A DNA stretch of 64,000 bases, taken from NCBI GenBank assembly GCA_965227295.1, contig OZ245742.1:5874551-5938550 (forward strand), read 5' to 3'. The DNA comes from Leptonemataceae bacterium (GTDB lineage Bacteria; Spirochaetota; Leptospiria; Leptospirales; Leptonemataceae). A program made the position numbers and the translations under genes. Shown here piece after piece: positions 37,323 to 59,448 of this stretch (position 1 is the stretch's first letter; each line of letters starts with the position of its first letter). The notes under the pieces were generated by a model that was given only the letters and a program-made list of their open reading frames with translations, had not been told where the DNA came from and did not search any database.

Positions 37323-37367
37323 AGGAGCGCCTCGTTGATCCGGGGCGCTCCCTGTGAATGCGCGGGC

Positions 37368-37610: not shown

Positions 37611-37615
37611 AATTT

Positions 37616-38763: not shown

Positions 38764-38772
38764 AACAGGGTT

Positions 38773-40100: not shown

Positions 40101-40141
40101 CCCATGCAGGCGAAAACCCACCGGGTCTTCGCCTGCATGGG
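40101..40141. terminator. Strong hairpin downstream of the czc/CDF genes
   Basis: CCCATGCAGGCGAA...TTCGCCTGCATGGG. Confidence 0.65.
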
Positions 40142-40242
40142 CGACAACGTTATCGCTCCTCTTCCCAGCCGTGAGCCTGCTGCGTGCTATGCGGTCGCGG
40201 CAATGTAACACCTGACAGGCCTCTATCCCTTCCTGCCCACCC

Positions 40243-41127: not shown

Positions 41128-41146
41128 CAGCCGCCCCCAATTAAGT

Positions 41147-42326: not shown

Positions 42327-42345
42327 ACACTTCTCCTTTACGCAG

Positions 42346-45300
42346 TTATTCTACATGGCTTTGCGGATCGCCGTCCCGATGCAGCCATGAGTAGGCCAGC
42401 GGAAGTAATGCGAGCGTTGCCACGGTGGCCGTAAAGATCCCACCGACGACGACTGTCGCGAGCGGGCGCTGGACCTCGGCCCCCATTCCCGTCGCCAGCA
42501 TCATCGGGAAAAAGCCGAGGATGTCCGTAAACGCCGTCATCAACACCGCTCGCAAGCGCAGTGCGGCTCCGCGTCGAATCAAAGCGTTACCATCACTTTC
42601 TCCGCCGGCACGCAATTCATTGTAGAAGTTCACAAGGACGACCCCGTTCAGAACAGCAATCCCCGACAGAGCAATCAGACCGACGCCGGCGGAAATGCTG
42701 AACGGTAGTCCCATCAGCTGCAGGCTAACGGCGCCTCCGGCCAGAGCGAAGGGCACCAGCGCGAAGATCAACACGGTCTGTTTTACGCTACGGAAGGCCG
42801 AAAAAATCATAAACGCGACAATCAATAAAGCCAGCGGTGCGACAATCAACAGGCGACTGCGCGCCTGCTCTAGATTGCGAAAGTTTCCGCCCCATTCCAG
42901 AAAGATTCCTTCCGGCAACCGCACCTTCGTTTCGATCGCACGCTGTGCGTCCTCGACGACGCTGGCCGTATCTCTGCCGCGCGGGTTTATCAACACGGCG
43001 GTGCGGCGCCGGGCGGACTCACGTTTAATCATGTCGAAGGCGTCGACGAATTCGATGCGTGCCAGAGAATGTAGCGGCGCCGTAAGGTTGTCCGCCACGC
43101 CGACCGGCAGATTGTAGATCGTCTCGAAGGAGCGCCGGGCATCGCCGTCCAGACGCAGCACGACGGGAAAACGTCGTACGCCGCGATAGAGATAGCCGAC
43201 CTCGGTCCCACCCAGAGCCAGTTGCACCGTATCCAGAACTTCGTGCGCCGGGACGCCGAATTGACGCAGGCGCTGTAGGTCCGGAGTTACGCTGAGAATC
43301 GGAGACTTGCCCTGAAGTTCCGCTTCGACGTCGCCCGCGCCCGGAACGGAGGAAATCGCCGCGACGAGTTGCTCGCTGACCGATTGCAGTTCGTCGAGAT
43401 CTTCGCCGTAGACCTTGAGCGCGACGTCGGCCCGCGCGCCCTCCATTAATTCGTTGAAGCGCAGCTGAATGGGCTGACTCATCAGAATGCGCTGGCCGGG
43501 GATTTCCGCTTTCAGGCGCGCGGCCAGTTCTTCGCGTAGTTCGTCCGGCGTTCGGGGACGACCCGTATCCGGCACGACCGTCCAGTCCTCCGGAGCCTTG
43601 AGCATTACGATCGTATCGGCGGTGTTCACGCCCATTGGGTCCGTCGCGATTTCCGCGGTACCGATTCGCGAGAATACCCGGTGAACCTCAGGAAACTCTT
43701 TGATCAAATTCTGGGAAATCCTTTCCAGTTCGATCGAACGATCGATGCCGACCGTCACCGGGCGTACAAACTGCACGGCGATAGAACCTTCGTAAAGCCG
43801 CGGAATAAATTCGCTGCCGGCGCGCCAGAGCAGTAAGGCCCCGAGACCCGGTACGATCAGCGACGAGGCGAGAATTGGTCCGCGATAGCGGATCAGGAAA
43901 GTGAGCAAACGCTGATAGAGGGCTTCCAGCCGCTGCATCAACCAGTGCGGGCGGGCGCGCCGCCGGCCTGACAGGAGCGCCCCGGCGAGAGCCGGAACCA
44001 GCGTGAACGATAGCACGAAGGCGCAAAACAGTGCGAATACGAAAGCGATCGCCATAGGCCGGAACATTTTGCCTTCGATGCCGGTCAACGTCAGAATCGG
44101 AATGAATACAATCACGATAATCAACTGACCGAAACCGGCGGCGTTTCGAATCTCCACGGCCGCGTCGGCGACGACTTCGCGAACTTCCGGGCGGCTCAGG
44201 GTTCGGCCGAGCTCCTCTCCGCGTGCTTCCACCCGCTGCATACAGTTGTCGATAACGATCACCGCTCCGTCGATGATGATGCCGAAATCCAGAGCGCCGA
44301 GTGACATCAGGTTGGCCGAATAGCCCGCCGCATCCATCAACGCCAGAGTACCCAGCATAGACAGCGGAATTACAAAGGCGCTGATCAACGCGGCGCGAAA
44401 ATTACCGGTCAGCACGAACAACACCACGATCACCAGCGCGGCGCCGAATATAAGATTTTCCCGCACGGTGGAGATGGTCGCGTCGACCAGCTCGGAACGA
44501 TCATAAAGAATTTCAAGTTCCGCCCATTCCGGCAGATCGACCGCTATCGCTTCCAGCCGTGCGGCGGCGTCGGCGGCGACAGCGCGACTGTTCTCTCCAA
44601 GCAGCATGAAGACGGTGCCAAGCACGCCTTCCTGTCCATCGATCACCGCCGCCCCCGTGCGCAGCTCGCGGCCCGGCCGCACAACGGCGACATCACCGAC
44701 CGTGACCACCGTGAGATCCGGCAGGGTGGCCACGGGCAGCGCCCGAATCTGATCCAATGAGCGAAAAACACCGTCGGCCTGCACCAGAAATTGTTCGGCA
44801 GTTTGCTGGACGTAAGCTCCGCCGGTGTTCTTGTTGCTCGCCTTGAGTGCCGCAGCGAATTCGTCGATGTGCAGACCGAAACGCGCCAGACGCGCCGGGG
44901 ACGGCTGCACATGATATTCTTCTGGATAACCGCCGATCGTATTTACCTCAGCGACGCCCCGCGTCTGAAGTAGCCGCGGCTTAATGTCCCATTCTTGCAG
45001 TGTGCGCAGGTCCATTAATTGCCGCAGACGTTGATCGGAATCCTCGGCGGGTTCTTTCGCGCGCACGGTATAATGGAGGATTTCGCCCAATCCCGTCGAG
45101 ATCGGGCCGAGGCGCGGCTGCACGCCCTCGATCAATTCCACGGACTGGAGTTGTTCGGAGATCAATTGTCGCGCCCGATACAGATCTGTGCCTTCTTCGA
45201 ACTCCACGGTAACCTGAGAAAGGCCGTAGCGCGTGATTGAACGAACGCCGGCCACGCGCGGAATCGTGCGCATCGCGTTTTCGATCGGATAGGTCACATT

Positions 45301-45537
45301 CATTTCAGCGGTCTCCGGCGTGAGCGCCGGCACCGCCGTGTTGACCTGCACCTGCACATTGGTAATATCCGGCACGGCGTCGATGGGAATGGAATAGAAC
45401 GCGGCGACGCCGGCCAGAATCAGGCACAACGTTCCAACGTATACGAACGCCGGAGTGTAGACAGATCGACGAATCATCGTGTCGAGAAAATTTCCGGCCG
45501 ACCCGGCGCCGGGAGTAGATGGGGATGATGGAGACAT
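42346..45537 (-). CDS. czcA: CzcA-type heavy-metal RND efflux pump
   Basis: DAVPDITNVQVQVNT, LGPISTGLGEI, LGALDFGIIIDGAV, GAEVQRPLATVV. Confidence 0.92.
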   Translation of the reverse strand: MSPSSPSTPGAGSAGNFLDTMIRRSVYTPAFVYVGTLCLILAGVAAFYSIPIDAVPDITNVQVQVNTAVPALTPETAEMNVTYPIENAMRTIPRVAGVRSITRYGLSQVTVEFEEGTDLYRARQLISEQLQSVELIEGVQPRLGPISTGLGEILHYTVRAKEPAEDSDQRLRQLMDLRTLQEWDIKPRLLQTRGVAEVNTIGGYPEEYHVQPSPARLARFGLHIDEFAAALKASNKNTGGAYVQQTAEQFLVQADGVFRSLDQIRALPVATLPDLTVVTVGDVAVVRPGRELRTGAAVIDGQEGVLGTVFMLLGENSRAVAADAAARLEAIAVDLPEWAELEILYDRSELVDATISTVRENLIFGAALVIVVLFVLTGNFRAALISAFVIPLSMLGTLALMDAAGYSANLMSLGALDFGIIIDGAVIVIDNCMQRVEARGEELGRTLSRPEVREVVADAAVEIRNAAGFGQLIIVIVFIPILTLTGIEGKMFRPMAIAFVFALFCAFVLSFTLVPALAGALLSGRRRARPHWLMQRLEALYQRLLTFLIRYRGPILASSLIVPGLGALLLWRAGSEFIPRLYEGSIAVQFVRPVTVGIDRSIELERISQNLIKEFPEVHRVFSRIGTAEIATDPMGVNTADTIVMLKAPEDWTVVPDTGRPRTPDELREELAARLKAEIPGQRILMSQPIQLRFNELMEGARADVALKVYGEDLDELQSVSEQLVAAISSVPGAGDVEAELQGKSPILSVTPDLQRLRQFGVPAHEVLDTVQLALGGTEVGYLYRGVRRFPVVLRLDGDARRSFETIYNLPVGVADNLTAPLHSLARIEFVDAFDMIKRESARRRTAVLINPRGRDTASVVEDAQRAIETKVRLPEGIFLEWGGNFRNLEQARSRLLIVAPLALLIVAFMIFSAFRSVKQTVLIFALVPFALAGGAVSLQLMGLPFSISAGVGLIALSGIAVLNGVVLVNFYNELRAGGESDGNALIRRGAALRLRAVLMTAFTDILGFFPMMLATGMGAEVQRPLATVVVGGIFTATVATLALLPLAYSWLHRDGDPQSHVE

Positions 45538-45575
45538 GATATACCTCAGTCTTTCTAACTTTCCTTAGAGGGAGA

Positions 45576-46184
45576 TTAGTGTCCGTGACCGGAGCCGGTG
45601 GCGCCGAACGCAGTCAGATAGGCCAGGTGCAGCAGCGCCGCCCCGGAATGAACGAGTTCCGCTGTGGCCGGCGGCAGGCCGGGTCGCAGGCGTATGCGCC
45701 GTGCGCTGCCGTCACTCCCCGACACGGAAACTTCGAATTGCCGTATACGATTGCGAGAGCGCAGATACACGAAAATCCGGCGTTCCGAAAAAACCAGAGA
45801 CTTCTCCGGCACGAGGAATTCCTCGCCACTGACTGCATACTTCTGTAGCGGAGCGAAACCGAGGCGCAGACGGCCGATAGCCGCCGGTGCGAGCTCGATA
45901 CCTTCGACTTCGTCCGCGAACACCACGGCCATTTCGGGGCCGGCTGTCATGGCCTCGCCATGTTCGCCATGTTCGCCATGTTCGCCATGTTCGCCATGTT
46001 CGCCATGTTCGCCATGTTCGCCATGTTCGCCATGTTCGCCGTGCTCGCCGTGCTCGCCGTGCTCGCCGTGCTCGCCGTGTTCGCCGTGTTCGCCGTGTTC
46101 GCCGTGCTCGCCGTGCTCGCCGCCGCATGCGGCCAGAGCGCTACAGAGCAAAAGCGTCAAAACAACCACTTTAGAATATTCCAT
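45576..46184 (-). CDS. Short adaptor-position lipoprotein with a (GEH)18 tract
   Basis: Lipobox LAAC; lies between czcC and czcA; ATG at 46184 overlaps the TolC stop. Confidence 0.75.
45960..46121 (-). repeat. 18 x 9-bp coding tandem repeat (Gly-Glu-His)
   Basis: Plus strand: 9x ATGTTCGCC, 4x GTGCTCGCC, 3x GTGTTCGCC, 2x GTGCTCGCC. Confidence 0.95.
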
Positions 46185-47490
46185 CGCCTTCGACCTCCGA
46201 TAAGAGTCGTCCGTCGATAACGTAAATCGACAGCAAAGCCAGTAGCGCGGCATCCTCACGTTCGTGATACTCATGTACGTATTCGATCATGCCGCGATGA
46301 AACTCGATCACCGTAGCCGCCGAAACTCGCCCGCGGGCTATGGCGGCACGCACCTGCCTGTGTTGGATTTCGAGGGCCGCAAACGACAGGCTGCGCTGCA
46401 GGGCGCGGCGCGCACCGGTATACTCGCGGAGCAAACGGTCTCGCTCCAACTGGAGGCGATCCTGAACGGACGCCGCGCGGGCCTGCTCCGCGGCAACGGC
46501 AGCACGGGCCGCGTCCCGGCCGCCTTCGTTGGTATGGTAAAGCGGCAGTGTCATGCGAAAGCTGAGTCCCAGTTCCGCCTCGGAAGACGAAGTCGAGCCG
46601 CCGAAGATGCCTCCCGACGGTATCCGACCGCGCCGGTACTCCAGAGCCGGGCCGATGCTGAGGTTCGGATACGCTTCCGCATCTTCTTGTTGCATCGCTG
46701 CTCGCGCGCGCGCAACTCGCTCGCGGGCGAGCCGCAATTCGGCCGCCTTGTCTTCTGTCGGCGGCTCCTGTAGCGTCGCGGCCACCGGCCAGCGCGGTTC
46801 GGGTATGCTTGCGGCGACCTGTGCGAAATCCGTGGCGGGAAGGCCGGTGGCGTAGCGCAATTCAATGACGAGTCGGTCTCGCTCCGCGTTAAGATGATCG
46901 ATGCGCATACGAACCCGGGCGAGAGCTACTTCGTAGCTTGCGCGACTCGCCTGCTGTTCGCCGCTCAACGCAGGTCGACGGCTGTACTTCGATACGGCGT
47001 TACCAAAGGCACGCTCCGCTTCTCGTAGATGACCGATCTCGTCCGCGAGATGCCGGAGACTATGAAGCCGTAGAGCGCTCTCGATGACGATCTCCATGCG
47101 ACGCAGCTCCAGGCGGCTGCGGGCCAGAGCAAGGTTCTGCTCCGCCACATCCATGCGGGCCGCACGTTTACCTGCCGTCTCAAACGTATGTTCAAATGAA
47201 GCTTCGGCCGTAAACGAATCCGGGCCGCCCAGCACACGCGAACCCAGTTCCGGGTTCGGATTCTGTTTCGCACGATCGACTTCGGCGGCGTACCGCTTCA
47301 ATTCGACCGTCGCCGCCTGCAATTCGGGGTTGTGTTTCATTGCGCAACGCAGCACTTCGTTCGCGGTGCTTGCTCGACATTGCGTAGCATTTGTCTTTAC
47401 CATATCGTCCGCTCGCAAGATTTCGGGTGCGGCGCTGAACGCGGCCCAGAATACGGCGGGGACAACAAACGCGTTCCAACGCATTCGCAT
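46171..47490 (-). CDS. czcC: CzcC/TolC-family outer membrane factor
   Basis: Signal peptide, NPEL, PNPEL, ET.GKR.AR, YPNLSIG, LPLY. Confidence 0.82.
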
Positions 47491-47604
47491 AGGTTTTCTC
47501 CAGTTCGTTTAATTCATACGACCGCGCACGACAACGGGTTGCGGTTGATGCTTGCGCCCCGGAAGACGGATCCAGGGCGACGAGACTGTATTTCCAGCGT
47601 CAGG

Positions 47605-48054
47605 TTAGAGAGGGGGAGCGCGGGGTGAGGTTGCTGTACGATAAAGTGAGAAGGGCGGCAAAGATGCCGCGATGAGAACCGTTCGAGCGCTAATCGTATG
47701 CACGACCGGCAAGCCTGGATACGTAGCGCAGCCGGACGCAACGGGACTCTGGGCCGGAGTGCCCGTGTCGGCGTCCGCGCGATTGAGAGCGGCGATACCG
47801 AGGGTTTCCAGCACATGCTCGACTGGTGCTTCGGAAGGAGTCGCCGGACTTTCATGGCTTACGCAGGCCGGCTCGCTGTGAACGGGAGCTATATGGGCGG
47901 CAGGACCGTGCGTGCTGCCATGATGGCAGTGCAGACCTATAAAGGATAAGGCCAGAGCCCATCCGAGGTGCAGAACCAACAGACGAGCGGCAATCGACTG
48001 TGACCTCATTCCCCCCACGAAAGAAAGCTTCCCTGGATTAACCGCGTATGTCAA
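47605..48054 (-). CDS. Hypothetical His/Cys leader protein upstream of czcC (start uncertain)
   Basis: TM segment, HCHH, ends in PRAPP. Confidence 0.45.
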   Translation of the reverse strand: MTYAVNPGKLSFVGGMRSQSIAARLLVLHLGWALALSFIGLHCHHGSTHGPAAHIAPVHSEPACVSHESPATPSEAPVEHVLETLGIAALNRADADTGTPAQSPVASGCATYPGLPVVHTISARTVLIAASLPPFSLYRTATSPRAPPL

Positions 48055-48338
48055 CTATAAGATTCGGATGCAAATCGTGAAATTTTCGTTCTGGAGAAGC
48101 AGATAGGAACCCATGGTTGCCGCCAACAACTAATTTATCGGGATCGAGTCTGCGTCCTCCATAGCTGCCCGTTGCTCCAATCGAGTTCGATGTCAAGTAA
48201 AGACGAGCCCGTATTGCGCGGCTGCATGCTAACTTCAGTCTCTGTTCAAACTCTTGCGATCCTTAGTCCCCTTTATCATCCCGCAAGAATCCGACCTGTG
48301 GTTCGTGACGGAAAACACTGCGTCTGAGAGGGAAGCAA

Positions 48339-48770
48339 ATGATTGGCATTCAGAGAATCATCTTGAGCCACGAGGACCTGGCAGCTCTGCATCGCCACGA
48401 GCCCATCCGCGTGGAGCACGTAGAGTATGCACCGTTGGTGATTGAATTCCTGGGCAAAGGCCCCACGGATCGTTTTGCCATCGGTGTTTCGCAGTTCGTT
48501 CCGTACGGCGACAGCGGTCGCTTGCTCTGCGATCGTGAAAAGGGGTTCGAAATCTCGGCGAACGACGAGTGGCTGCTGTTAACTTTCGAGCCAAACCACC
48601 GGCGAACTCAAGGAAGTCTATACACCCGTACGGCTTCCGAGGTCGTCGCGATTGAGTTCCCTATTAAAGAGGGACCGCAAGTTATTTGTGGAGCTTCAGC
48701 AAGTCGCCTACGAGTGGGAGTAGGAAATCCGGCGCGCCGACTACCCCGGAGCGCTGAAAAAAGCCTGTAG
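48339..48770 (+). pseudogene. Possible degraded DUF6908-like plasmid/ICE protein
   Basis: IRVE..EY.PLVIE.LG.GP...I.VS....G.L..D.E..FE resembles DUF6908 from memory; the C-terminus appears to shift frame (ELQQVAYEWE*). Confidence 0.35.
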
Positions 48771-49029
48771 TACCCGCTGTTCAATGATCTCGACAAACAG
48801 GAGGCAGAGGCATGAGGGACCCGGGACGAAATCCTGTACAGTATCGCGTCGGCATCAGCGACGCGATGCGGAACGAAGTTCGAGCGCGTTTCGAAAACAC
48901 TTCGCAGCACATCCATAATGTCATCGCGGCCGATTTTCGCAATCGTCCCCCGCTCATCGACTTGATCGGAAAGCCGCCGGAGAGGGTCTCGGTTGATGAC
49001 GGCTGGGAAGAGGAGCGATAACGTTGTCG

Positions 49030-49070
49030 CCCATGCAGGCGAAGACCCGGTGGGTTTTCGCCTGCATGGG
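49030..49070. terminator. Strong hairpin after short ORF 48812-49021
   Basis: CCCATGCAGGCGAA...TTCGCCTGCATGGG; inverted twin at 40101-40141. Confidence 0.65.
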
Positions 49071-49371
49071 ATATTTGTATACGGCGGTTCCCAGGCGCAG
49101 CATGCGATAAGCAGAGACGCGTTGCCGACGAAACGCGGCGCGGAATCTCGGCGCTGGCTGTGAACTTCGACTTCCCGTGATTGCCTGGAAAAACCAATAC
49201 GAGCTGGAGCGGCGGGGGTTAGGATTCGGCCGAAATTAGTTAGCACCGACGTCTTCGATTGCTGGAATCCACGTCCCGGAAAAGCGGCCGGATTTCTCCC
49301 GGGCAAGCTCATTGAATCCGGCGACGCCAGGCGCTCCGGATCTCTAAGTGTTCCTCATCTGATGTTTGCCC

Positions 49372-49514
49372 TCTTTGCGTGATTCCTTTGCGTGATTCCT
49401 TTGCGTGATTCCTTTGCGTGATTCCTTTGCGTGATCGTCTTCCGTGATCGTCTTCCGTGATCGTCTTCCGTGATCGTCTTCCGTGATCGTCTTCCGTGAT
49501 CGTCTTCCGTGATC
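49372..49514 (+). repeat. 13-bp tandem array, 11 units: 5x YCTTTGCGTGATY plus 6x GTCTTCCGTGATC
   Basis: Counted directly. Confidence 0.95.
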
Positions 49515-49541
49515 GCGAGTTAGTCTCTTTTCATCTCAAGC

Positions 49542-50999
49542 TTGTACAGTTTTCTGATTCCGTCGTCCGTGGTTCCCTTGCCGCTGATGATGTTCTTTAC
49601 CTCTCTTCCGTTCTTGTGGCCACACGCCCCTCGCATTTGTGGCCACAAATCCACCGAGGCCGTTTTTGTGAATTTCTGCTGGACAGCTTCACTGTACGTC
49701 ATCGACCCTCGTTTCATGCCCGCAGCCGCTCGAAAATCCGCGCATATCTCCGGTCTACAATCCACACAGGCCCGCGAGCGCGCGCGCCGAGGTTCGGTAG
49801 CCTCGGCGCGCGCGTTCGCGGGGCGGACCGTGTCAGACTCGCAGCGGGGCGGCGAAATCGCGCGCGTTCTCGGGAGCCCCGCCCGTGAGACTCACAGCCG
49901 CGGCCCTCTTTCGCCCCCCTGCCGGACGCCCGCTGCGAAAACAAGATTCAATCGGCGATTTCCTCAGCTGAATCTGCTCTATTATACTGCGCTAGCGCAG
50001 GATGTTCTGGGCCGGGCGTATCCGAAGTTCTGTCCGCATTGTGATGTTGAAATGCACACGCCTGTGGCCGGGCGCGAGACCGCGGTGCGTTGCGAAACCT
50101 GTCACTACATGGGCTCGCGCACGGCGGGCACCCCGCTGGATCACTTAAAGTTACCTCTCTGGACGTTTAGCTATGTGCTTGGCGAGGCCGTGCAGACGTT
50201 CCCGCAGATGATCTCCGCGGCGCAGATTCAACGGCGGCTCGGATGTTCGAAACAGGCTTCGCTGAATCTCAAGCGGCGCCTGCAATTGTTCCTCACGGAC
50301 CTCGTGCCGGCCGTCCGCGAACTGGTGAAGCGCGATCTTGAAGAGGCGTTTTCTGACCTGAAATTGCCGGAAAATCAAGACGTTTCGAAGTTTGTCGCGA
50401 ATAAGCCCGTGGTGCACAGCGACACCCTCGCCTTGTTCTCGGCAACGCAGCGCAGTAACGGCGGTCGCGCAAGATGGAAACATACCGGACAGACCGCAAG
50501 CATCTATCTTTCGGACAAAGTCGCGGAGCAACGTGGCAAAGTCCAGATCGGAACGCTCGCGCATACCGTTGCGATTATGAACGGGCCGGTGCTACTTACG
50601 TCCGTTCGCGATCAAACACAGAAGAGTCTTGAACCTTCTTTCAACTTCTTGCCGCGCCTGACGCCGATCATGACGGACGAAGGCACGCCGTGGCTGTCGC
50701 GTTACTTTCCGAATCATCGCGCCGTAAATCACAGCGCCCGCGCGAAGGACAAACAGCGCAGCAAGTGGGCGCGGGATCGCTGGAGCCGCAACGGCGTCCA
50801 CAATCAGGTCGCCGAAGGCAACCAGCGAATCGTTAAGATGAGTTTCCTCGCAGCTTACGGATACTTCGATCCGAAGTACTCGCAGTTGTATCTCAATGAA
50901 TACTCCGCGCTCAAGGCCCTGAAGCTCCACGGCCTCGATAGTCTGCTTTCTCTATCAAATCCGACCGGTGTGGGGAATGTAGACCACAGATTGTTCTAG
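49542..50999 (+). CDS. IS1595-family transposase, C-terminally truncated form (in-frame ATG at 49716)
   Basis: Identical core to copy 1; the frame opens upstream of the left IR and ends DHRLF* at the TAG of the target duplication. Confidence 0.85.
   Translation: MYSFLIPSSVVPLPLMMFFTSLPFLWPHAPRICGHKSTEAVFVNFCWTASLYVIDPRFMPAAARKSAHISGLQSTQARERARRGSVASARAFAGRTVSDSQRGGEIARVLGSPARETHSRGPLSPPCRTPAAKTRFNRRFPQLNLLYYTALAQDVLGRAYPKFCPHCDVEMHTPVAGRETAVRCETCHYMGSRTAGTPLDHLKLPLWTFSYVLGEAVQTFPQMISAAQIQRRLGCSKQASLNLKRRLQLFLTDLVPAVRELVKRDLEEAFSDLKLPENQDVSKFVANKPVVHSDTLALFSATQRSNGGRARWKHTGQTASIYLSDKVAEQRGKVQIGTLAHTVAIMNGPVLLTSVRDQTQKSLEPSFNFLPRLTPIMTDEGTPWLSRYFPNHRAVNHSARAKDKQRSKWARDRWSRNGVHNQVAEGNQRIVKMSFLAAYGYFDPKYSQLYLNEYSALKALKLHGLDSLLSLSNPTGVGNVDHRLF
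49746..50991 (+). mobile_element. 1,246-bp IS1595-like module, copy 2
   Basis: Direct repeat of 21873-23118. Confidence 0.9.
50992..50999 (+). repeat. 8-bp target duplication TGTTCTAG, between module 2 and module 3
   Basis: ...CCACAGAT|TGTTCTAG|ATCTCCGG... Confidence 0.92.
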
Positions 51000-52245
51000 A
51001 TCTCCGGTCTACAATCCACACAGGCCCGCGAGCGCGCGCGCCGAGGTTCGGTAGCCTCGGCGCGCGCGTTCGCGGGGCGGACCGTGTCAGACTCGCAGCG
51101 GGGCGGCGAAATCGCGCGCGTTCTCGGGAGCCCCGCCCGTGAGACTCACAGCCGCGGCCCTCTTTCGCCCCCCTGCCGGACGCCCGCTGCGAAAACAAGA
51201 TTCAATCGGCGATTTCCTCAGCTGAATCTGCTCTATTATACTGCGCTAGCGCAGGATGTTCTGGGCCGGGCGTATCCGAAGTTCTGTCCGCATTGTGATG
51301 TTGAAATGCACACGCCTGTGGCCGGGCGCGAGACCGCGGTGCGTTGCGAAACCTGTCACTACATGGGCTCGCGCACGGCGGGCACCCCGCTGGATCACTT
51401 AAAGTTACCTCTCTGGACGTTTAGCTATGTGCTTGGCGAGGCCGTGCAGACGTTCCCGCAGATGATCTCCGCGGCGCAGATTCAACGGCGGCTCGGATGT
51501 TCGAAACAGGCTTCGCTGAATCTCAAGCGGCGCCTGCAATTGTTCCTCACGGACCTCGTGCCGGCCGTCCGCGAACTGGTGAAGCGCGATCTTGAAGAGG
51601 CGTTTTCTGACCTGAAATTGCCGGAAAATCAAGACGTTTCGAAGTTTGTCGCGAATAAGCCCGTGGTGCACAGCGACACCCTCGCCTTGTTCTCGGCAAC
51701 GCAGCGCAGTAACGGCGGTCGCGCAAGATGGAAACATACCGGACAGACCGCAAGCATCTATCTTTCGGACAAAGTCGCGGAGCAACGTGGCAAAGTCCAG
51801 ATCGGAACGCTCGCGCATACCGTTGCGATTATGAACGGGCCGGTGCTACTTACGTCCGTTCGCGATCAAACACAGAAGAGTCTTGAACCTTCTTTCAACT
51901 TCTTGCCGCGCCTGACGCCGATCATGACGGACGAAGGCACGCCGTGGCTGTCGCGTTACTTTCCGAATCATCGCGCCGTAAATCACAGCGCCCGCGCGAA
52001 GGACAAACAGCGCAGCAAGTGGGCGCGGGATCGCTGGAGCCGCAACGGCGTCCACAATCAGGTCGCCGAAGGCAACCAGCGAATCGTTAAGATGAGTTTC
52101 CTCGCAGCTTACGGATACTTCGATCCGAAGTACTCGCAGTTGTATCTCAATGAATACTCCGCGCTCAAGGCCCTGAAGCTCCACGGCCTCGATAGTCTGC
52201 TTTCTCTATCAAATCCGACCGGTGTGGGGAATGTAGACCACAGAT
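51000..52245 (+). mobile_element. 1,246-bp IS1595-like module, copy 3
   Basis: Direct repeat of 21873-23118. Confidence 0.9.
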
Positions 52246-52868
52246 ATAGCGCCCTGCCCTCCGGGCTTCCCGTCGGCACGGGCCTCAGCATATTTCATCG
52301 CAAAGTGCAGGAGAATCTGTATATCCCACCGCAATTGCACGATCGCAAGGGCCTCGACTATAGCGACTCGCGGCGGCAGATTCGCGGAAATCTCAAGCTG
52401 ATGTTGGACGAACCGGACCTGTTTGCCGCCAAACAGGCCCATGTAGATTACCTGAATTCGTTTCAAGGCCTGCCGCCGTTTCGAAAGCAGAACGAAAAGA
52501 AATACGCCGCGCAAGCGTCGGCGCTCTGGAACGCGCTATCGCGACACGACGCGAAGCTATCCGCCGACGTCGCGCGCTCCGTGCGCGTCAATCATCGCAT
52601 GGTATTAAGGATGATTCGACTGTGGACGAAGCTCGGCCTCGTCGAGGCGCGTGAGATTCGCGGCGAGAAGGATCGCCGTAAACAGTTCTGGGTGTCGCGG
52701 CGCGTGTCGCTTCTGCCAGCGCTGCTGTATACCTGGGATCTCGACGGATTCCGCAATCAAACCGAGGCAGGCGTGCCCGTGGACCGCACGAAGAAAACCC
52801 GGCGCGGTAAGCACGGGATAACCGGCAAAGAACGTTCTAAATTTATTCAGGAGATGTATGATGGGTAA
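51084..52868 (+). CDS. IS1595-family transposase with winged-helix extension (duplicate)
   Basis: Identical to 21957-23741. Confidence 0.88.
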   Translation: MSDSQRGGEIARVLGSPARETHSRGPLSPPCRTPAAKTRFNRRFPQLNLLYYTALAQDVLGRAYPKFCPHCDVEMHTPVAGRETAVRCETCHYMGSRTAGTPLDHLKLPLWTFSYVLGEAVQTFPQMISAAQIQRRLGCSKQASLNLKRRLQLFLTDLVPAVRELVKRDLEEAFSDLKLPENQDVSKFVANKPVVHSDTLALFSATQRSNGGRARWKHTGQTASIYLSDKVAEQRGKVQIGTLAHTVAIMNGPVLLTSVRDQTQKSLEPSFNFLPRLTPIMTDEGTPWLSRYFPNHRAVNHSARAKDKQRSKWARDRWSRNGVHNQVAEGNQRIVKMSFLAAYGYFDPKYSQLYLNEYSALKALKLHGLDSLLSLSNPTGVGNVDHRYSALPSGLPVGTGLSIFHRKVQENLYIPPQLHDRKGLDYSDSRRQIRGNLKLMLDEPDLFAAKQAHVDYLNSFQGLPPFRKQNEKKYAAQASALWNALSRHDAKLSADVARSVRVNHRMVLRMIRLWTKLGLVEAREIRGEKDRRKQFWVSRRVSLLPALLYTWDLDGFRNQTEAGVPVDRTKKTRRGKHGITGKERSKFIQEMYDG

Positions 52869-53187
52869 AGTATCGAAGAAGAAAGCCAGTAAAAAAGCGA
52901 AGGAGGAACCGCTGAAGTTCTTCGCATCGCACTTTTGGGACCTCATGAAGTCTCAGGACTACAAGTGCGCACTCACCGGGCGTGAGTTGACACCGGACAA
53001 CACCGAAGTCGAGCTGCGCGTGCCGTTCAAGAGCGTGGGCCGGACGGAGTTCTCGAATCACTACATCGTCGTGCGACAGTTGGCATACACGGCACGGCAT
53101 GTGAGCGAAGACGAGATCGTCGAGCTGGCGGCCGACATCATCCGGCATCGCGGCAAGGAGTTCGGCTATGCGCTCCGCAAAGCGTGA
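52858..53187 (+). CDS. Degenerate HNH-like protein (duplicate)
   Basis: Identical to 23731-24060. Confidence 0.6.
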   Translation: MMGKVSKKKASKKAKEEPLKFFASHFWDLMKSQDYKCALTGRELTPDNTEVELRVPFKSVGRTEFSNHYIVVRQLAYTARHVSEDEIVELAADIIRHRGKEFGYALRKA

Positions 53188-53824
53188 AGACCTGTTCCCG
53201 GCGTGGGGCGTCGAGGCGGCGCTCTCGCGCTTAAGAGGCCGGCAGAAGAAGTTTGCTGCGTCGCCGATGGAACGCAAGCACGTCGCGCGTGACAAACGCT
53301 CGTGGAGCTATGCCTGCGTCTCGGCCGTGAACAAGATGCGCTATCGGCACCGCGCCGTCTTTCAGGAATCGCGCGAGCCGGATGCGTGGTCGTGGGTGAT
53401 TGCCGTGCAGAAAAAGAAGCTCGTGCGGAAGGTTGACCCGGTCGCGGCGTGGCGGGATGCAGAGTATCGGATTCTGGAACGATACTACGGCCGGCTGCGC
53501 GAACCTCAATCCAAGCAGGATCGCGATCGCTGGCGGTATGTGATTATTCGGCAGCGGTCGTACTTGCGGCGACTACAGGGGCGAGCAAAATCCGGTCCGC
53601 CTTCAAACGACTGGGCCAGAGTTCTTAAAAAAATGGCCCGGATCTCTGCGACACCATCGGAACATAGCAGTGGCCGTGGTTCCTGGAACTGGCGAACGAC
53701 TGTGGCAGCCCAACGAGAGAAGCTACGGAACGCCCGCAGGCAGACGGGATGGATGAAGCTTGAAAGCCGACTCCAGTTCAATCCCGCAGCTCGACCATAT
53801 CATATTTCTGAACCTGTCCACTAA
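53168..53824 (+). CDS. Trp/Arg-rich hypothetical protein (duplicate)
   Basis: Identical to 24041-24697. Confidence 0.55.
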   Translation: MRSAKREDLFPAWGVEAALSRLRGRQKKFAASPMERKHVARDKRSWSYACVSAVNKMRYRHRAVFQESREPDAWSWVIAVQKKKLVRKVDPVAAWRDAEYRILERYYGRLREPQSKQDRDRWRYVIIRQRSYLRRLQGRAKSGPPSNDWARVLKKMARISATPSEHSSGRGSWNWRTTVAAQREKLRNARRQTGWMKLESRLQFNPAARPYHISEPVH

Positions 53825-54149
53825 GGATTTGAGCCTTTGCGTAGTGTTCATCGATCACGGACGTGATGCGAATACTGCCAACCTCTTCGCGCTGATAGTA
53901 AACATCATCAGTTCCCGTATCTATAGCTTTTGTCCGAAAGACTTCAAGCTTCTGCCCGGGCTCCGCACCGTCTCGATCACCGATACAAATCACGACTACT
54001 TCTTCTTTCACATCGACAACGTTGCCTCGCATGCCGTACTTGTGATAGAACTTCGAAAAGCTTGCACACGCGAGCGCACTCGAAATCAAAAACAGACATG
54101 TCATCAATCGAATCGTTAATTTTATATGTTTCATAGAGGATAGATTCAA
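53778..54149 (-). CDS. Small lipoprotein (duplicate)
   Basis: Identical to 24651-25022. Confidence 0.6.
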   Translation of the reverse strand: MNLSSMKHIKLTIRLMTCLFLISSALACASFSKFYHKYGMRGNVVDVKEEVVVICIGDRDGAEPGQKLEVFRTKAIDTGTDDVYYQREEVGSIRITSVIDEHYAKAQILSGQVQKYDMVELRD

Positions 54150-54345
54150 CGTAGAATCGGATTAAGTCCATCAAATTCGCGACGGCACTCCAAAAAATTC
54201 ATAGCCTTCGGAGAACCGCACCTCGCGACAATGATCGTTTCATAATGCACGAGAAAGACTACGAGTGCCTGTCGATACACTTCACGAACCATGAATGATA
54301 CAGTGAGCCGTGACCTGACCAAAACTACTTCAATCGTCAGTTTTC

Positions 54346-56403
54346 TTAATCATCGGTCTCGTCGCGCGAAAGATCCACGCTGCGCTTAAGCAACTGCGCG
54401 TTCACCGCGACGATCACGGTGCTGAGACTCATAAACACCGCGCCCACCGCCGGACTCAGCATGATCCCCAGCGGCGCGAGCACACCTGCCGCGAGGGGAA
54501 TGGCAACGACGTTGTAGGCCGTCGCCCAGATTAGATTCTGAATCATCTTGCGATGCGTCGCACGACCGAAGAGCACCAGGTTGCTGATGTCTTTGGGATT
54601 GCTGTGCACGAGCACGATGTCCGCCGTCTCCGCGGCGACGTCGGTGCCGGAGCCGACGGCAATGCCCACGTCCGCCTGGGCCAGGGCCGGCGCGTCGTTG
54701 ACGCCGTCACCGGTCATGGCGACGAACTCGCCGTCGCCTTGCAGTTCTTTAACGATGTCCTGTTTCTCGTGAGGCAGCACGCCCGCATAAAACCCGTTCA
54801 GGCCCAGCTCGTCGTGGACGCTCTTCGCGACGGTCTCATTGTCGCCGGTGGCCATCATCGTTTTGATGCCGGTGTCGTGCAAAATGCGAATCGCCTCGGG
54901 AGACTCGGGGCGTATGGAGTCCGCCAGGCCGACAAAACCCTTGAGTTCTCCGTCCACGACCAGAAAGACCACCGTCTCCGCGCCGGACGCGGCGGCCGAA
55001 TCGGGAATCGTTATGCCGTTTTCCTTTAAGAAGCCCGGGCTGACCACCTTCACCTCGCGGGAATCCACGGACGCCTGCACACCCTTGCCGGTGATCGATT
55101 GAAAGCCTGACGCCTCCGGGACCGACAGCTCGCGCTTTTCACAGGCTTGAACGATGGCCTGCGCAATAGGATGCTCCGAATTTTTTTCGAGGGCCCCCGC
55201 AAAGCGCAGCACGTCATCCTCCGAAAACGAGTCCGACACGCTCACGACCCGCTGCACGCCGAATTCGCCGGTGGTCAGGGTGCCGGTCTTGTCGAAGACG
55301 ATCGTAGAAATTTTGCGCGCGCTTTCGAAGGCGGTCCGATTGCGAATCAGCAGGCCGTTTTGTGCGGAGATGGCCGTCGAAATCGCGGCCACCAGGGGAA
55401 TCGCCAGACCGAGGGCGTGCGGACAGGAAATCACCATCACGGTCACCATGCGTTCCAGAGCGAAGACGAACTCGTAGCCGAGATAGAGCCAGACCGCTAA
55501 GGTCAGCGCGCCGGCGGTTAAGGCGACGAAGGTCAGCCAGCGCGCGGCCCGGTCGGCCAGGCGCTGGGTGCGGGACTTCGTTTGCTGGGCCTCTTCGACC
55601 AGGCGAATCACTTTAGAAAGATACGAGTCCTCGCCGGTCTTGTTGACGCGAATGCGCAGCGAGCCCTCACCGTTGACGGAGCCGCCGATCACTTCGTCGC
55701 CCGCGGACTTGCGCACCGGCTCCGACTCGCCGGTGAGCATGGATTCATTGAGATAGCTGTTACCGTCTTCGATGGTGCCGTCGGTGGGAACCTTTTCCCC
55801 GGGCTTGATCAGCAACAGATCGCCGGACTGTACGTCCTCCAGCGCCACGTCGTTCACGTCGCCGTCCTCGTCGATGCGATGCGCTTCGTTGGGCATCATC
55901 TCCACGAGCAGTTCCAGGGCGCGGGACGCACCGAGCACCGAGCGCATCTCGATCCAGTGGCCGAGCAGCATGATGTCGATCAGCGTCGCCAGCTCCCAGA
56001 AGAACATCTTGCCGGACAGGCCGAAGACCACCGCCGAACTGTAAGCGTAGGCCACGAAGATGGCCAGGCCGATTAGAGTCATCATGCCCGGGTTGGCCCG
56101 GCGCACCTCATCGAACGTGCCGCGCAGAAACGGCCAACCGCCGTAGAAAAAGATCATCGACGACAGCCCGAACAGAACGTAGCGGCTCCCTGGAAACTCC
56201 AGGGAGAAACCGAGAAACGACTGGATCATCGGCGAAAGAACGAGGACCGGCACGGTCAGGACGGCCGATACCGCCAGGCGCTTCTTGAAGTCCCGGATCA
56301 TTTGCCGGTGATGATCGCCGTGATTGTGACCGCCGTGGCCGTCGTGATTACCGTGGTCGTGATTGTGTTCGGCGTGTTTTTCGTGGTCTTCGTGATGTTT
56401 CAT
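54346..56403 (-). CDS. copB: CopB-type P1B-3 ATPase (duplicate)
   Basis: Identical to 25219-27276. Confidence 0.93.
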   Translation of the reverse strand: MKHHEDHEKHAEHNHDHGNHDGHGGHNHGDHHRQMIRDFKKRLAVSAVLTVPVLVLSPMIQSFLGFSLEFPGSRYVLFGLSSMIFFYGGWPFLRGTFDEVRRANPGMMTLIGLAIFVAYAYSSAVVFGLSGKMFFWELATLIDIMLLGHWIEMRSVLGASRALELLVEMMPNEAHRIDEDGDVNDVALEDVQSGDLLLIKPGEKVPTDGTIEDGNSYLNESMLTGESEPVRKSAGDEVIGGSVNGEGSLRIRVNKTGEDSYLSKVIRLVEEAQQTKSRTQRLADRAARWLTFVALTAGALTLAVWLYLGYEFVFALERMVTVMVISCPHALGLAIPLVAAISTAISAQNGLLIRNRTAFESARKISTIVFDKTGTLTTGEFGVQRVVSVSDSFSEDDVLRFAGALEKNSEHPIAQAIVQACEKRELSVPEASGFQSITGKGVQASVDSREVKVVSPGFLKENGITIPDSAAASGAETVVFLVVDGELKGFVGLADSIRPESPEAIRILHDTGIKTMMATGDNETVAKSVHDELGLNGFYAGVLPHEKQDIVKELQGDGEFVAMTGDGVNDAPALAQADVGIAVGSGTDVAAETADIVLVHSNPKDISNLVLFGRATHRKMIQNLIWATAYNVVAIPLAAGVLAPLGIMLSPAVGAVFMSLSTVIVAVNAQLLKRSVDLSRDETDD

Positions 56404-56433
56404 AGATTCCTCCGATGTACCCGGGTGCCTTAT

Positions 56434-56724
56434 TCAGGGACGCCGGGCCGTCGCCTCGCGCAGCGAAAAGTTGTAAATCCCGGCGATGCACGCACCACAG
56501 AGATACGCCAGCACGAAGCTCTGGAAAAAACCCAGGCCGGCCTCCCACCAGGGCACGTCCATGCGAATCACGCCGCTGACGTCCAGGCCGTGCAACAGGC
56601 TGTTGAAAAAGAGAATCGTCCCTTCGCGTCCCACGCTCATCATCAGAATGATGCAGCCGGCGTACAGCAGCGCCGCCGTGACGCCCCAGGCGATACCGAA
56701 CTTAAGTACGTTTATGCGAATCAT
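56434..56724 (-). CDS. DUF5676-like membrane protein (duplicate)
   Basis: Identical to 27307-27597. Confidence 0.65.
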   Translation of the reverse strand: MIRINVLKFGIAWGVTAALLYAGCIILMMSVGREGTILFFNSLLHGLDVSGVIRMDVPWWEAGLGFFQSFVLAYLCGACIAGIYNFSLREATARRP

Positions 56725-56926
56725 GCGAACCTCCCCGGTGAGAATGACCTTCGTGGCCGTCTCCGCCGTGCATGCCGCTCATAAGAAAAAAATGCGCGGC
56801 GAAACAAATCATCAAAAAGAAGAACAGTGACCACGAGTCGCCGGGCAAAAAGGCCGGTGCGAAAAATATCAACAGCAGCGGCAGCACGCAGATCAAAAGC
56901 ATCCATATCATGTGAAATCTCATCAT
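56702..56926 (-). CDS. DUF2933-like membrane protein (duplicate)
   Basis: Identical to 27575-27799. Confidence 0.65.
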   Translation of the reverse strand: MMRFHMIWMLLICVLPLLLIFFAPAFLPGDSWSLFFFLMICFAAHFFLMSGMHGGDGHEGHSHRGGSHDSHKRT

Positions 56927-56984
56927 CAAACCTCCGAAACCAGAACAGCTCCCCGCCGCTTTTTCCGGGACGGGGAGCTTCGTT

Positions 56985-57527
56985 TTACATTTGAAACTCG
57001 GCTTCGTGAACGTGCTTCTTTCCACCGTAGGTGAACTCGGCCTTCACTTTGTAAGTTCCGGAACCCTGCATGGAAAAACCGATGCCGTGGTGGTGCATGC
57101 CGCCGCCGGCCATCACGTGGCCCTCACCGTCGGCCAGGACCTTGCCGTCCGGCCCGGTGACCGTGATCTTGAGGCCCTTGGCGTCCTTGATGACCTTCTT
57201 CGTATCGAGTTTCATCAGCGTCAGGCTGAGGTGATGCTGACCGGTGTCGTGCATACCGTGCATGTCCACGTTCATCATCTTCGCCATATCCGCGTGGCCT
57301 TCGGCGGTCATGAGGTCGAAGGCGACCTGAACGCCGTCGTGTTTGACGACCTTCGTCATGTTTTTTCCCGAGTGCATGCCGGGATTATGGCCGTCCATCA
57401 TATCGCCGGAGTGATGGTCACTCATCGCACCGCCGTCATGGTGATCCCCCGGCTCGCCGCCGCAGGCAACGCCCAATAAGGCGCCCAAGACGAGGACCGG
57501 AATCAATTTCAATAAACTCATAAACAT
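56985..57527 (-). CDS. Met/His-rich lipoprotein (duplicate)
   Basis: Identical to 27858-28400. Confidence 0.75.
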   Translation of the reverse strand: MFMSLLKLIPVLVLGALLGVACGGEPGDHHDGGAMSDHHSGDMMDGHNPGMHSGKNMTKVVKHDGVQVAFDLMTAEGHADMAKMMNVDMHGMHDTGQHHLSLTLMKLDTKKVIKDAKGLKITVTGPDGKVLADGEGHVMAGGGMHHHGIGFSMQGSGTYKVKAEFTYGGKKHVHEAEFQM

Positions 57528-57562
57528 CTCCTTATATTAAGTTAAATAAAGACTGGCGCCCT

Positions 57563-58180
57563 TCAATGGTCTCCGGTTTCCAGAAATTCTCCCCGCGGGC
57601 CGACGCCGTGCAGGTGCGTGAGTTCGGCCCCGAAGTGCCCCGCCGCGGAGACCAGGACCGCGGCAGCCAGCATCGTAGCGGCGGCCACGAATTCCAGCCA
57701 GCGGCGACGCAGCCCAAGGCCGGCGAGTTGCAAAGCAAGCGCCGCGGCGGCCGTGTAGATCGTGGCGTAGGCGAAAAAATCGTGGTTGGCGAGGACCGCC
57801 CGGGCTTCCGGAGTAAGACCGGTCGTGTGCGGGTGCACGAAGTAGGCCGCAACCACGCCGCCGATCAGTCCGACGGCGCCCACGGCGATACCCGTCCGGA
57901 TCAGCGTGTCGTTTCGGAAGATTAAACCGACCGGATACAGAATCGCCGCGAGCAACAACAGGACGATCGGGAAGTGAACGACCAAAGGATGCAGCGTCGG
58001 AAAGGCCGCGAGAGGCGGCGCGACCGCTTCCAGAAGTCCGGCCTCGGGAGTGGATTCCGCGGCACTCTCCCCGGATGCGTGGTCCCCGGGCCCGTGGGCA
58101 TGCAATGGCAGCGCCGCCAGATAGATGGCCAACCCCAGGGCTAATATTTTCTGAATGATATTTAAGACCCTTGCTTTCAT
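57563..58180 (-). CDS. DUF2231-like membrane protein (duplicate)
   Basis: Identical to 28436-29053. Confidence 0.75.
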   Translation of the reverse strand: MKARVLNIIQKILALGLAIYLAALPLHAHGPGDHASGESAAESTPEAGLLEAVAPPLAAFPTLHPLVVHFPIVLLLLAAILYPVGLIFRNDTLIRTGIAVGAVGLIGGVVAAYFVHPHTTGLTPEARAVLANHDFFAYATIYTAAAALALQLAGLGLRRRWLEFVAAATMLAAAVLVSAAGHFGAELTHLHGVGPRGEFLETGDH

Positions 58181-59445: not shown

Positions 59446-59448
59446 GAA

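Follow-up and report, generated by a model that had tools for sequence, protein, structure and literature searches.

Does the insertion of a mobile element change the very enzyme that moved it? This question is raised by a locus in which a transposase gene lies in two incomplete versions, one with an upstream start codon and one with a C-terminal tail, within the window (the whole stretch of DNA analysed, 64,000 nucleotides; Table 1). A first-pass annotation had described three modules here and proposed that full-length protein could be made only from a circular form, so that integration itself would alter the enzyme.

Table 1. Features of the window, in order of position.
Feature	Position	Strand	Remarks
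Target gene, MBOAT-family O-acyltransferase	20025-21872	+	Pfam MBOAT E 5.9e-24; ends ...PFIYFVF*
Left target-site duplication TGTTCTAG	21865-21872		8 bp, the last 8 bp of the MBOAT gene
Left terminal unit, element copy 1	21873-23118	+	100% identical to 49746-50991
Left inverted repeat of left unit	21873-21895		In unconstrained 5' leader of the gene
Perfect palindrome, 52 nt	21898-21949	+	Between left repeat and GTG 21957
Long transposase ORF, copy 1	21957-23741	+	594 aa from GTG
Right inverted repeat of left unit	23096-23118		Inside coding sequence, codon 387, disordered linker
Partner ORF p109	23731-24060	+	109 aa, after long ORF
Partner ORF p218	24041-24697	+	218 aa, after p109
Cargo 1	25219-38781	-	Pfam: P-type ATPase, DUF2231, ArsP-type permease, heavy-metal RND pump with its membrane-fusion and outer-membrane proteins, weak MerC-like match, MerR regulator
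Inverted fragment of unit	38992-39208	-	First 217 bp of unit, 100% identical, element interior
Inverted copy of upstream region U	39209-40172	-	Holds 234-bp insertion at 39323-39556
Cargo 2	40243-47490	-	Pfam: two cation-diffusion facilitators, DUF3703, second RND pump, outer-membrane factor
Upstream region U	48999-49745	+	13-bp tandem repeats 49373-49515; small antisense ORF 49520-49720
Short transposase ORF	49542-50999	+	485 aa from TTG; ends ...GVGNVDHRLF*
Short ORF from ATG	49716-50999	+	LF* end falls in target duplication
Right terminal unit, element copy 1 (first-pass module 2)	49746-50991	+	From ORF lists and exact repeats; 100% identical over 1,246 bp to 21873-23118 and to 51000-52245
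Right target-site duplication TGTTCTAG	50992-50999		Also left flank of element copy 2
Element copy 2 (first-pass module 3)	51000-64000	+	Starts here, runs off contig end
Parts of element copy 2	unit 51000-52245, p109 52858-53187, p218 53168-53824, then cargo	+
Long transposase ORF, copy 2	51084-52868	+	594 aa

One gene that spans both repeats of the unit

Copy 1 of the element (29,119 bp, 21873-50991) carries heavy-metal efflux genes and has at both ends, as a direct repeat, an IS1595-type unit of 1,246 bp, whose own ends form an imperfect inverted repeat (19/23 bases matching). Chance is ruled out for this unit structure, since the copies agree exactly and other genomes show breaks at these very points. 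The reading frame of the unit has no internal stop, is open through both inverted repeats and continues for 207 conserved codons past the right one. Core and tail form one long gene, and both unit repeats lie within it. Because the right repeat sits inside the linker of the 594-aa transposase, the left copy keeps the tail and the right copy keeps the upstream region U. A 1.2-kb piece of the gene is thus repeated at both element ends and gives two incomplete transposase versions per insertion, and as a result of this split gene callers report proteins of about 390-440, 520 and 580-640 aa.

The long transposase is made up of a putative Zn ribbon, an IS1595-type DDE domain, a disordered linker and a winged-helix tail. 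The DDE domain corresponds to Pfam PF12762 (DDE_Tnp_IS1595; residues 252-358, E 2.1e-7, 31.5 bits against a Pfam cut-off of 27). The N-terminal CPHC...CETC ribbon matches Pfam Zn_ribbon_IS1595 weakly (E 0.11); C88 and C91 are invariant in alignment A1 (17 sequences) and nearly so in the wider alignment A3. An AF2 model of the long form has a pLDDT of 78.3, falling below 50 at the core/tail boundary (residues 378-400). When the whole model was compared with the PDB by Foldseek, nothing was returned at E <= 0.001; the weak rows include the ISCth4 transposase, retroviral integrases and MarR/ArsR winged-helix proteins. Purifying selection acts on the tail (pN/pS 0.19-0.27), which diverges together with the core (86% across both parts). 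None of 21 tail matches lacks an adjoining core, and a search for tail-only proteins gave 1 partial hit among 71 candidates. Partner genes p109 and p218 follow the long form in all lineages (p109 is syntenic at 21/21 tail-bearing places by tblastn), and neither has a Pfam match, even at E up to 5. Two further origins of the arrangement were considered and rejected: landing of one element inside the gene of another predicts orphan tails, of which there are none, and a self-contained IS whose ORF reads accidentally into its flank is at odds with a tail that is conserved and under selection.

Much of the first-pass description stands. It had assigned to module 2 the upstream region and an ATG 30 bp outside the left inverted repeat, with a tail-less product ending DHRLF*, and the ORF list agrees, placing the in-frame ATG at 49716-49718, 30 bp ahead of the repeat boundary at 49746. 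Modules 1 and 3 have, as claimed, the tail and partners and lack the upstream region, being in the same frame and 207 codons longer; the GTG at 21957, codon 28 from the repeat boundary, is indeed the sole in-frame ATG/GTG/TTG between that boundary and the CPHC of the Zn ribbon. The division of the gene into two incomplete versions proved to be complementary and systematic: in 6/6 composites the left copy consists of unit and tail without U, and the right copy of U and unit without tail. The modules were real as repeats, but their boundaries had to be redrawn, since a single element has module 1 as its left end and module 2 as its right end, and a second element copy starts with module 3.

Insertion after MBOAT stop codons

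The element starts at the base right after the TAG stop of the MBOAT gene, whose orientation and reading frame it shares, and TGTTCTAG is found on both sides of 21873-50991. The frame of the right unit runs into the duplicated target, whose TAG terminates it (LF*). The 8-bp spacer is a copy of the last 8 bp of the adjacent MBOAT gene at three sites, reading TGTTCTAG in this window, AGTTTTAG at 5.03 Mb and TGTTTTAG in a relative. The left repeat lies directly after the MBOAT stop, always co-oriented, at all nine MBOAT-adjacent loci from 5 genomes. Within this genome the units are confined to two MBOAT-linked islands and none is dispersed.

Other Leptospirales, and another part of this genome, contain composites built in the same way. 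Within one element the end units are 99.8-100% identical (6/6 composites), whereas units of different elements are 66-86% identical. Units are intact inside composites (12/12), and three of the seven solo units are broken; some solo units are flanked by a target duplication. Leptospira assemblies also hold contigs of 1.15-1.22 kb that consist of the unit alone, and a plasmid search with the protein returned 1 record, a partial Leptospira match.

A proposed transposition cycle

The contrast in identity within and between elements implies passage through a single-unit, probably circular, form. We regard it as rather probable that the 29,119-bp element cycles via such a form and duplicates the unit on integration after the MBOAT stop. 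The single-unit form would have the order U-unit-tail-cargo and would most simply be a circle, joining the upstream ATG, the unit and the tail. On integration, replicative DDE transposition of the cointegrate type, as for the pseudo-compound transposons of IS26, would duplicate the unit, and recombination between two units would free the single-unit form again, leaving a solo unit as a scar. The winged-helix tail may choose the MBOAT-end target.

Several points run counter to this cycle. Identical end units could also be obtained by gene conversion, and the flanks would look no different if the whole composite moved by means of its outer left and right repeats. In addition, the 5.03-Mb element has the left long copy, but its right-hand unit is absent. 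Nor was a single-unit or circular form observed, as U precedes none of the 12 tail-bearing copies examined.

A further point against the cycle lies in the element interior. An inverted fragment of the unit (its first 96-300 bp) accompanies an inverted U in every element, with fragments of this size at the matching place in L002, L004, L005, L006 and L008; the cycle model neither needs nor explains them.

Start codons and a possible integration-dependent switch

From the arrangement of the DNA, an integration-dependent switch is structurally plausible. In its strong form, the promoter and start would lie in U and only the single-unit circle would make the ATG-to-tail protein; in the integrated state, U would drive a tail-less enzyme and the full-length copy would be silent or dependent on MBOAT read-through. 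We hold this strong form to be possible, yet on the whole doubtful.

The case for it begins with the last 31 bp of U (the U-tip), which contain the conserved in-frame ATG at 49716 and are conserved in the relative and in two metagenome contigs. A metagenome scan for U-tip junctions gave 2 hits only, with a pattern that did not include the ATG. This ATG is in frame at 14/14 U/unit junctions read as DNA (6 in the relative and 5 here, 2 on metagenome contigs, and that of L013, where the spacing is 21 nt and not 30 nt), and the proteins of 14 short-form clusters begin with it. In 19/20 units the reading frame meets no stop between the first base of the left repeat and the Zn ribbon, although this distance varies from 91 to 117 codons, and the unit plus the duplication is a multiple of 3 in 10/10 periods of 5 distinct lengths. 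Moreover, three of 12 tail-bearing copies (B, the 5.03-Mb copy and rE1) have no in-frame ATG/GTG/TTG within the unit before the conserved N-terminal motif.

Against it, 14/19 units own an internal in-frame start. This start is a GTG in A, C and E (codon 28), a TTG in 7 units, which all have it at one conserved position, and an ATG in L010, L014 and the 5.03-Mb short copy. Neither the part supplied from outside nor the first ~62 codons are constrained at the amino-acid level (pN/pS about 1), so there is no sign of translation between the left repeat and codon ~62. No Shine-Dalgarno-like sequence was seen by eye in the U-tip, and a scan of 49300-51300 found no sigma-70-like promoter (0.6 expected) and 2 terminator-like sites (2.2 expected). 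Conservation of the U-tip could mark a DNA site rather than coding. Finally, none of the 12 tail-bearing copies examined has U upstream, and no single-unit or circular form was seen among them.

The leader of this genome's units also counts against the strong form. The palindrome folds at -58.2 kcal/mol (z -6.7), and the B-type unit, with other sequence in its leader, has a stem just as perfect. Leader folds of this genome's three unit types reach z -5.7 to -7.2; for nine units of other lineages z lies between -2.3 and +0.4, and L005 alone falls nominally below its shuffles. The large hairpin is therefore local to this genome, because the folds of other lineages show none comparable. A hairpin common to all lineages was tried and rejected, the consensus fold giving only 8 weak pairs.

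The switch proposed in the first-pass annotation thus keeps its complementary halves and conserved ATG, whereas the internal starts, including the GTG of this locus, count against it. The idea is unproven, as internal GTG/TTG starts are present in most copies and neither a promoter nor a circle was seen. The resemblance then drawn to elements whose attP lies inside a gene is not borne out: the junctions are inverted-repeat ends with an 8-bp duplication, as in DDE transposition, and not the simple attL/attR core repeats of such integrative elements, and a Pfam scan of 27 element ORFs found no tyrosine or serine recombinase.

An improbable alternative: an ordinary compound transposon

Another explanation is that two autonomous 1.25-kb IS copies bracket resistance genes by chance, in which case the in-frame run into the tail would be incidental and the short ORF would be a normal IS transposase. 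In its favour, nothing that is usual for IS1595 is missing from the 387-aa core, with its DDE domain and putative Zn ribbon, and there are duplication-flanked solo units and unit-only Leptospira contigs. However, the tail is conserved, in frame and selected in all 21 tail-bearing places and never stands alone; the units keep to their two MBOAT-linked islands instead of dispersing; tail and U always fall on opposite copies, left and right; and the unit by itself gives its ORF no stop and no conserved start. We therefore consider an ordinary compound transposon improbable and retain the cycle through a single-unit form as the preferred reading.

The tandem array and its assembly

In the array, copies 1 and 2 are followed by a 25.7-kb element of another type (B), and this in turn by solo units. 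The sequence 21865-34873 equals 50992-64000 (100% over 13,009 bp), and genome positions 1-9999, at the contig start, match 41084-50999 of the window at 99.7%, which fits as the continuation of copy 2; there copy 2 differs from copy 1 by 6,210 bp. The array was probably built by repeated insertion into one site. Unequal crossing-over between units was rejected as the origin of copy 2, as the joint keeps two units and the 8-bp duplication. It should be noted that the tandem picture partly rests on the assembly, because copy 2 ends exactly at the contig end.

That the truncated copy and the tandem second copy are mis-joined repeats is suggested by the exact 13,009-bp repeat stopping at the last contig base and by the contig start repeating 41084-50999, but is very unlikely, given that the order U, short copy, 8 bp, long copy is also found well inside the contig (genome 34459-35713) and 4 times in the relative's 6.4-Mb contig, that short copy, 8-bp spacer and long copy (without U) recur at 5.03 Mb, and that A-type unit words have a depth of 650-700 against 390-410 for the two-copy B type (short-read unitigs, run X1). 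These depths, which are not copy numbers, give a weak hint of about four A copies. Among Logan unitigs on 50500-51500, no listed piece crosses the unit-8 bp-unit joint, a 1.2-kb repeat that short reads cannot span, and the loose ends show no junction that the assembly lacks.

Meaning and comparison with known systems

Taken together, these data permit a joint reading that we offer tentatively, judging it possible rather than probable. A DDE transposon would have its ends inside its own transposase gene, which would be whole only in the circle; integration would copy the middle of the gene, leaving one version with promoter and ATG but no tail and another with the tail only. The tail would steer the element to the MBOAT stop, an integration-competent enzyme in the circle would give way to a tail-less enzyme or regulator in the chromosome as a switch on integration state, and the identical ends would date insertions in the manner of LTRs.

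No account of such a construction among IS1595 relatives was found in the literature searched, within which it would be an undescribed way of building a mobile element for this group. Four things stand out: the element homes precisely, and in one orientation, to stop codons within a multi-copy gene family; a piece of the transposase gene serves as its LTR-like direct repeats; it accretes in tandem into islands of > 100 kb; and its cargo is for heavy-metal efflux. If expression does need the single-unit form, this would be a new example of a mobile element reading its own integration state. The precise homing may serve as a natural safe-site insertion system.

Members of the IS1595 family have terminal inverted repeats, an 8-bp target duplication and a transposase gene between the repeats. 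The present element shares with them (ISXO2-like) the DDE_Tnp_IS1595 domain, imperfect terminal repeats and the 8-bp duplication, and has a putative N-terminal CxxC...CxxC ribbon, but its transposase ORF runs through both repeats instead of being contained between them, and it has an extra 207-aa winged-helix tail, two conserved partner genes and strict site and orientation specificity. Tn7 at attTn7 (glmS) inserts in one orientation just downstream of a conserved gene, which stays intact. Oriented insertion just past a gene, an intact target and site reuse leading to tandem accretion are likewise found here, although the targets are several MBOAT paralogues; a Pfam scan of the element ORFs detected no TnsABCD-like proteins, the only DDE protein being of IS1595 type. 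By analogy with LTR retroelements, the ends would be identical at insertion and diverge between lineages, and solo units fit as scars; in this case, however, there is no reverse transcription and the repeat is a piece of the transposase gene.

In IS3/IS30/IS110-type circle-junction promoters and the SSV1-type partitioned integrase, a signal or gene is whole only when the element is excised. Integration takes a gene apart here as well. The difference is that a 1.2-kb gene part is duplicated, giving two overlapping incomplete versions, and that the enzyme is of the DDE type. For IS26, a cointegrate and pseudo-compound transposon model is set out in PMC7986276. This transposase is of IS1595 and not IS6 type, the repeated unit does not contain a whole transposase gene, and neighbouring elements are separated by a target duplication with no shared IS; we infer replicative transposition. 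Nevertheless, as in the IS26/IS6 pseudo-compound transposons treated in that paper, direct end copies lie around a resistance segment, an 8-bp duplication surrounds the whole and arrays are formed, and the single-IS circle of the translocatable unit described there fits as the intermediate or donor here.

Two incomplete versions of one transposase gene

The first-pass annotation described a transposase gene present in two incomplete versions, and this observation is confirmed, its account of the ORF and of the modules (the three copies of the unit) agreeing with the ORF listing. In module 2, the ORF of 485 aa (read from a TTG, C-terminus ...GVGNVDHRLF*) has an in-frame ATG 30 bp outside the repeat boundary and terminates two codons past the right repeat, inside the 8-bp TGTTCTAG that precedes the next unit. 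In modules 1 and 3, the frame extends for 207 codons to reach 594 aa, the next ORFs encode 109 and 218 aa (p109 and p218), and one GTG is the sole in-frame ATG, GTG or TTG between the boundary and the Zn-ribbon CPHC. The unit ends in imperfect inverted repeats (19 of 23 bases matching), and its ORF meets no stop codon within it. The unit protein carries an ISXO2/IS1595 DDE domain (E 2.1e-7, above Pfam's cut-off) and a CxxC...CxxC ribbon, to which the Pfam match is weak (E 0.11).

Homologues, including those of Leptospira, form two classes: long proteins of 520-635 aa with the tail, and short ones of ~390-440 aa with a common end residue. Purifying selection acts on the tail (pN/pS 0.19-0.27), types A (the window's) and B share 86% DNA identity over core and tail alike and so diverge in step, and p109 always comes next after the tail. 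An AlphaFold2 model built on 33 aligned sequences (mean pLDDT 78.3) places the unit boundary at residue 387, inside a segment of pLDDT <50 (residues 378-400) that separates the catalytic core from the C-terminal domain; the winged helix lies at 493-539. Foldseek returned nothing at E <= 0.001, the weak rows being an IS256-family transposase, integrases and MarR-type regulators, and Pfam HTH_27 matches weakly (E 0.027). Since the tail is selected, co-diverges with the core, is always followed by p109 and is joined through a low-pLDDT segment, the sequence comparisons and the predicted structure show core and tail to be one gene, not a fusion.

Element layout and tandem array

Because TGTTCTAG stands on both flanks, modules 1 and 2 are the ends of one element with the unit directly repeated at each, and module 3 opens a second copy that continues at the contig start. 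In a relative, the array runs through four composites (a unit at both ends) of 17-22 kb and three solo units to a fifth left end. In every element, a fragment of the unit's start and, joined to it, a copy of the upstream region (U) are present in inverted orientation; the element at 5.03 Mb is without a right-hand unit.

Features of the element and its surroundings (window coordinates unless marked genome; element parts and array members in order)
Feature	Position	Remarks
Inverted-repeat pair	16579-17690	~90 bp, 86-90%, ~930 bp apart, upstream of MotA/MotB-like genes
TGTTCTAG	21865-21872; 50992-50999	
Units of modules 1, 2, 3	21873-23118; 49746-50991; 51000-52245	1,246 bp, 100% (self-comparison)
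Long repeat	21865-34873; 50992-64000	13,009 bp, 100% (self-comparison); right copy reaches the window's final base
Internal GTG	21957	
Element	21873-50991	29,119 bp
Part 1		long gene, p109, p218
Part 2		metal-efflux block: P-type ATPase, ArsP-type permease, RND pump and partners, MerR
Part 3		inverted 217-bp fragment of unit start, joined to inverted copy of U
Part 4		second efflux block: two cation-diffusion facilitators, second RND pump
Part 5	48999-49745	U, carrying 13-bp tandem repeats
RND block of first cargo	30397-36266	paralogue at genome 5043423-5049246, 77-83% DNA identity, close to the second MBOAT-linked island
ORF (-)	45576-46274	contains 9-bp tandem unit, ~20 copies, two sub-variants (45928-46143)
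Two adjacent 13-bp arrays in U	49373-49515	4.8 and 6.6 copies
ORF (+) of module 2	49542-50999	
Upstream ATG	49716	
Second copy, continuation	genome 1-10007	against 41084-50999, 99.7%
Type-B element	genome 10008-35704	25,697 bp; 8-bp spacer between members
Solo units C and D		8-bp spacers
Decayed unit E		spacer before it broken by an unrelated IS

A collagen repeat is the sole Pfam match of the ORF at 45576-46274, which is therefore likely to be a linker of low complexity separating the RND pump from the gene for the outer-membrane factor. The 13-bp repeats of U may be protein-binding iterons; the second element copy (counterpart at L043:8290-8523, another analyzed sequence) is longer by 91 bp, or 7 additional repeats. 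U also contains a small antisense ORF. Unrelated multi-copy ISs lie inside the island (L044:18226-19631 and L044:12338-14363, in a further analyzed sequence); one of ~1.4 kb occupies the 8-bp spacer between D and E, and one of ~2.0 kb lies inside U of the B element.

The window is the final 64 kb of one 5,938,550-bp contig, and the exact 13-kb repeat runs up to its end. Copy 2 would miss 6,210 bp (34874-41083) precisely at the contig end/start joint, where just 2 bases are common. Unitig depths in one run (650-700 for A-type, 390-410 for B-type), which are not copy numbers, hint at about four A units. The finding is independent of copy 2; the arrangement of U, short copy, spacer and long copy recurs deep inside the contig (genome 34459-35713) and four times in the relative.

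Target site

The TGTTCTAG to the left of module 1 closes a gene of the MBOAT family (Pfam E 5.9e-24, C-terminus ...PFIYFVF*), of which it forms the final 8 bp. The second island, at 5.03 Mb, begins likewise after another MBOAT paralogue (end ...CAGTTTTAG), and its short and long copies are separated by AGTTTTAG. The MBOAT gene of a related Leptospirales genome (6.44-Mb contig) has the end ...GTGTTTTAG, and every spacer there is TGTTTTAG (7 junctions, pattern search). Since the spacers match the local MBOAT ends, on sequence grounds the spacer is a target-site duplication of 8 bp, produced by insertions that hit a single site repeatedly. All nine loci next to an MBOAT gene (two in this genome, seven in relatives; five genomes, several paralogues) have a left repeat that starts immediately downstream of the stop codon, with no base between, in the orientation of the MBOAT gene.

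Across the whole genome, 12 such paralogues end F[IVF]YF[QV]F-stop; two are occupied, the only TAG-ending ones, and the targets in relatives include TGA-ending genes. A Leptospira adleri contig (L012:1-260) holds a short-unit end, an 8-bp spacer and a long copy, but this spacer differs and an MBOAT gene is absent; the target of the Leptospira relatives thus appears to be another one.

Start codon

The first-pass annotation went on to interpret the two versions as an integration-dependent switch, which is partly supported: the incomplete versions stand, but the switch itself, in which the upstream ATG is the real start, we consider rather unlikely. In its favor, conservation of the final ~31 bp of U extends to the relative and two metagenome contigs, and the ATG is in frame at all 14 junctions read as DNA, including the analyzed sequence L013 with a spacing of 21 nt instead of 30 nt. 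Fourteen short-form protein clusters start at this ATG, a count biased by the preference of gene callers for uninterrupted frames. Read from the left repeat's first base, the frame stays open as far as the Zn ribbon in 19 of 20 units (91-117 codons), and unit plus duplication is divisible by three in 10 of 10 periods. In type B, type D, the long copy at 5.03 Mb and, in the relative, rE1 and rs4, the conserved N-terminal motif AK..FN is preceded by no in-frame start within the unit. However, 14 of 19 units do possess an internal start, among them GTG at codon 28 in type A and, in seven units, TTG at one conserved position, as in two Leptospira copies. Moreover, pN/pS stays at ~1 over the stretch that begins at the left repeat and reaches codon ~62, and values of 0.03-0.4 are found only once the AK motif begins (three lineages). 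Leaders in this genome contain a 24-bp hairpin with perfect pairing (z -5.7 to -7.2), absent from other lineages, and a scan of 49300-51300 found no sigma-70-like promoter.

A proposed single-unit stage

End units of the same composite are 99.8-100% identical in 6 of 6 cases (A and B here, E1-E4 in the relative), whereas units of different elements share 66-86% identity. LTRs present the same pattern, alike within an element and divergent between elements; LTR ends become identical at every insertion. Orphan tails are absent from the 21 tblastn tail matches, each of which adjoins a core, and the 71 candidates for free-standing tail proteins yielded one partial protein only. All 12 units inside composites are intact, and three of seven solo units are broken (D, E and rs2, where the break may be a homopolymer error).

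From the end-unit identity, the lack of orphan tails and the intact composite units, we infer a three-step single-unit cycle as the simplest account. The element would pass through a self-closed one-unit form (U-unit-tail-cargo), integration would duplicate the unit, and recombination between units would free the one-unit form, leaving a solo unit behind. No circle or empty variant was seen. Formation of copy 2 by unequal crossing-over between units is ruled out because the joint retains two units and the duplication.

Comparison with known systems

As background for comparison, we draw on features of the IS1595 family, Tn7, the IS911 and IS30 junction promoters, the SSV1 integrase and LTR elements. 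One account (PMC7986276) describes cointegrate logic for IS26-type pseudo-compound transposons, which matches the cycle that we infer here. The part of the full-text literature reached by our search gave no account of an IS1595-type element with MBOAT genes as its target or with a split transposase gene. The element is a site-specific member of the IS1595 family with LTR-like ends made of part of its own gene.
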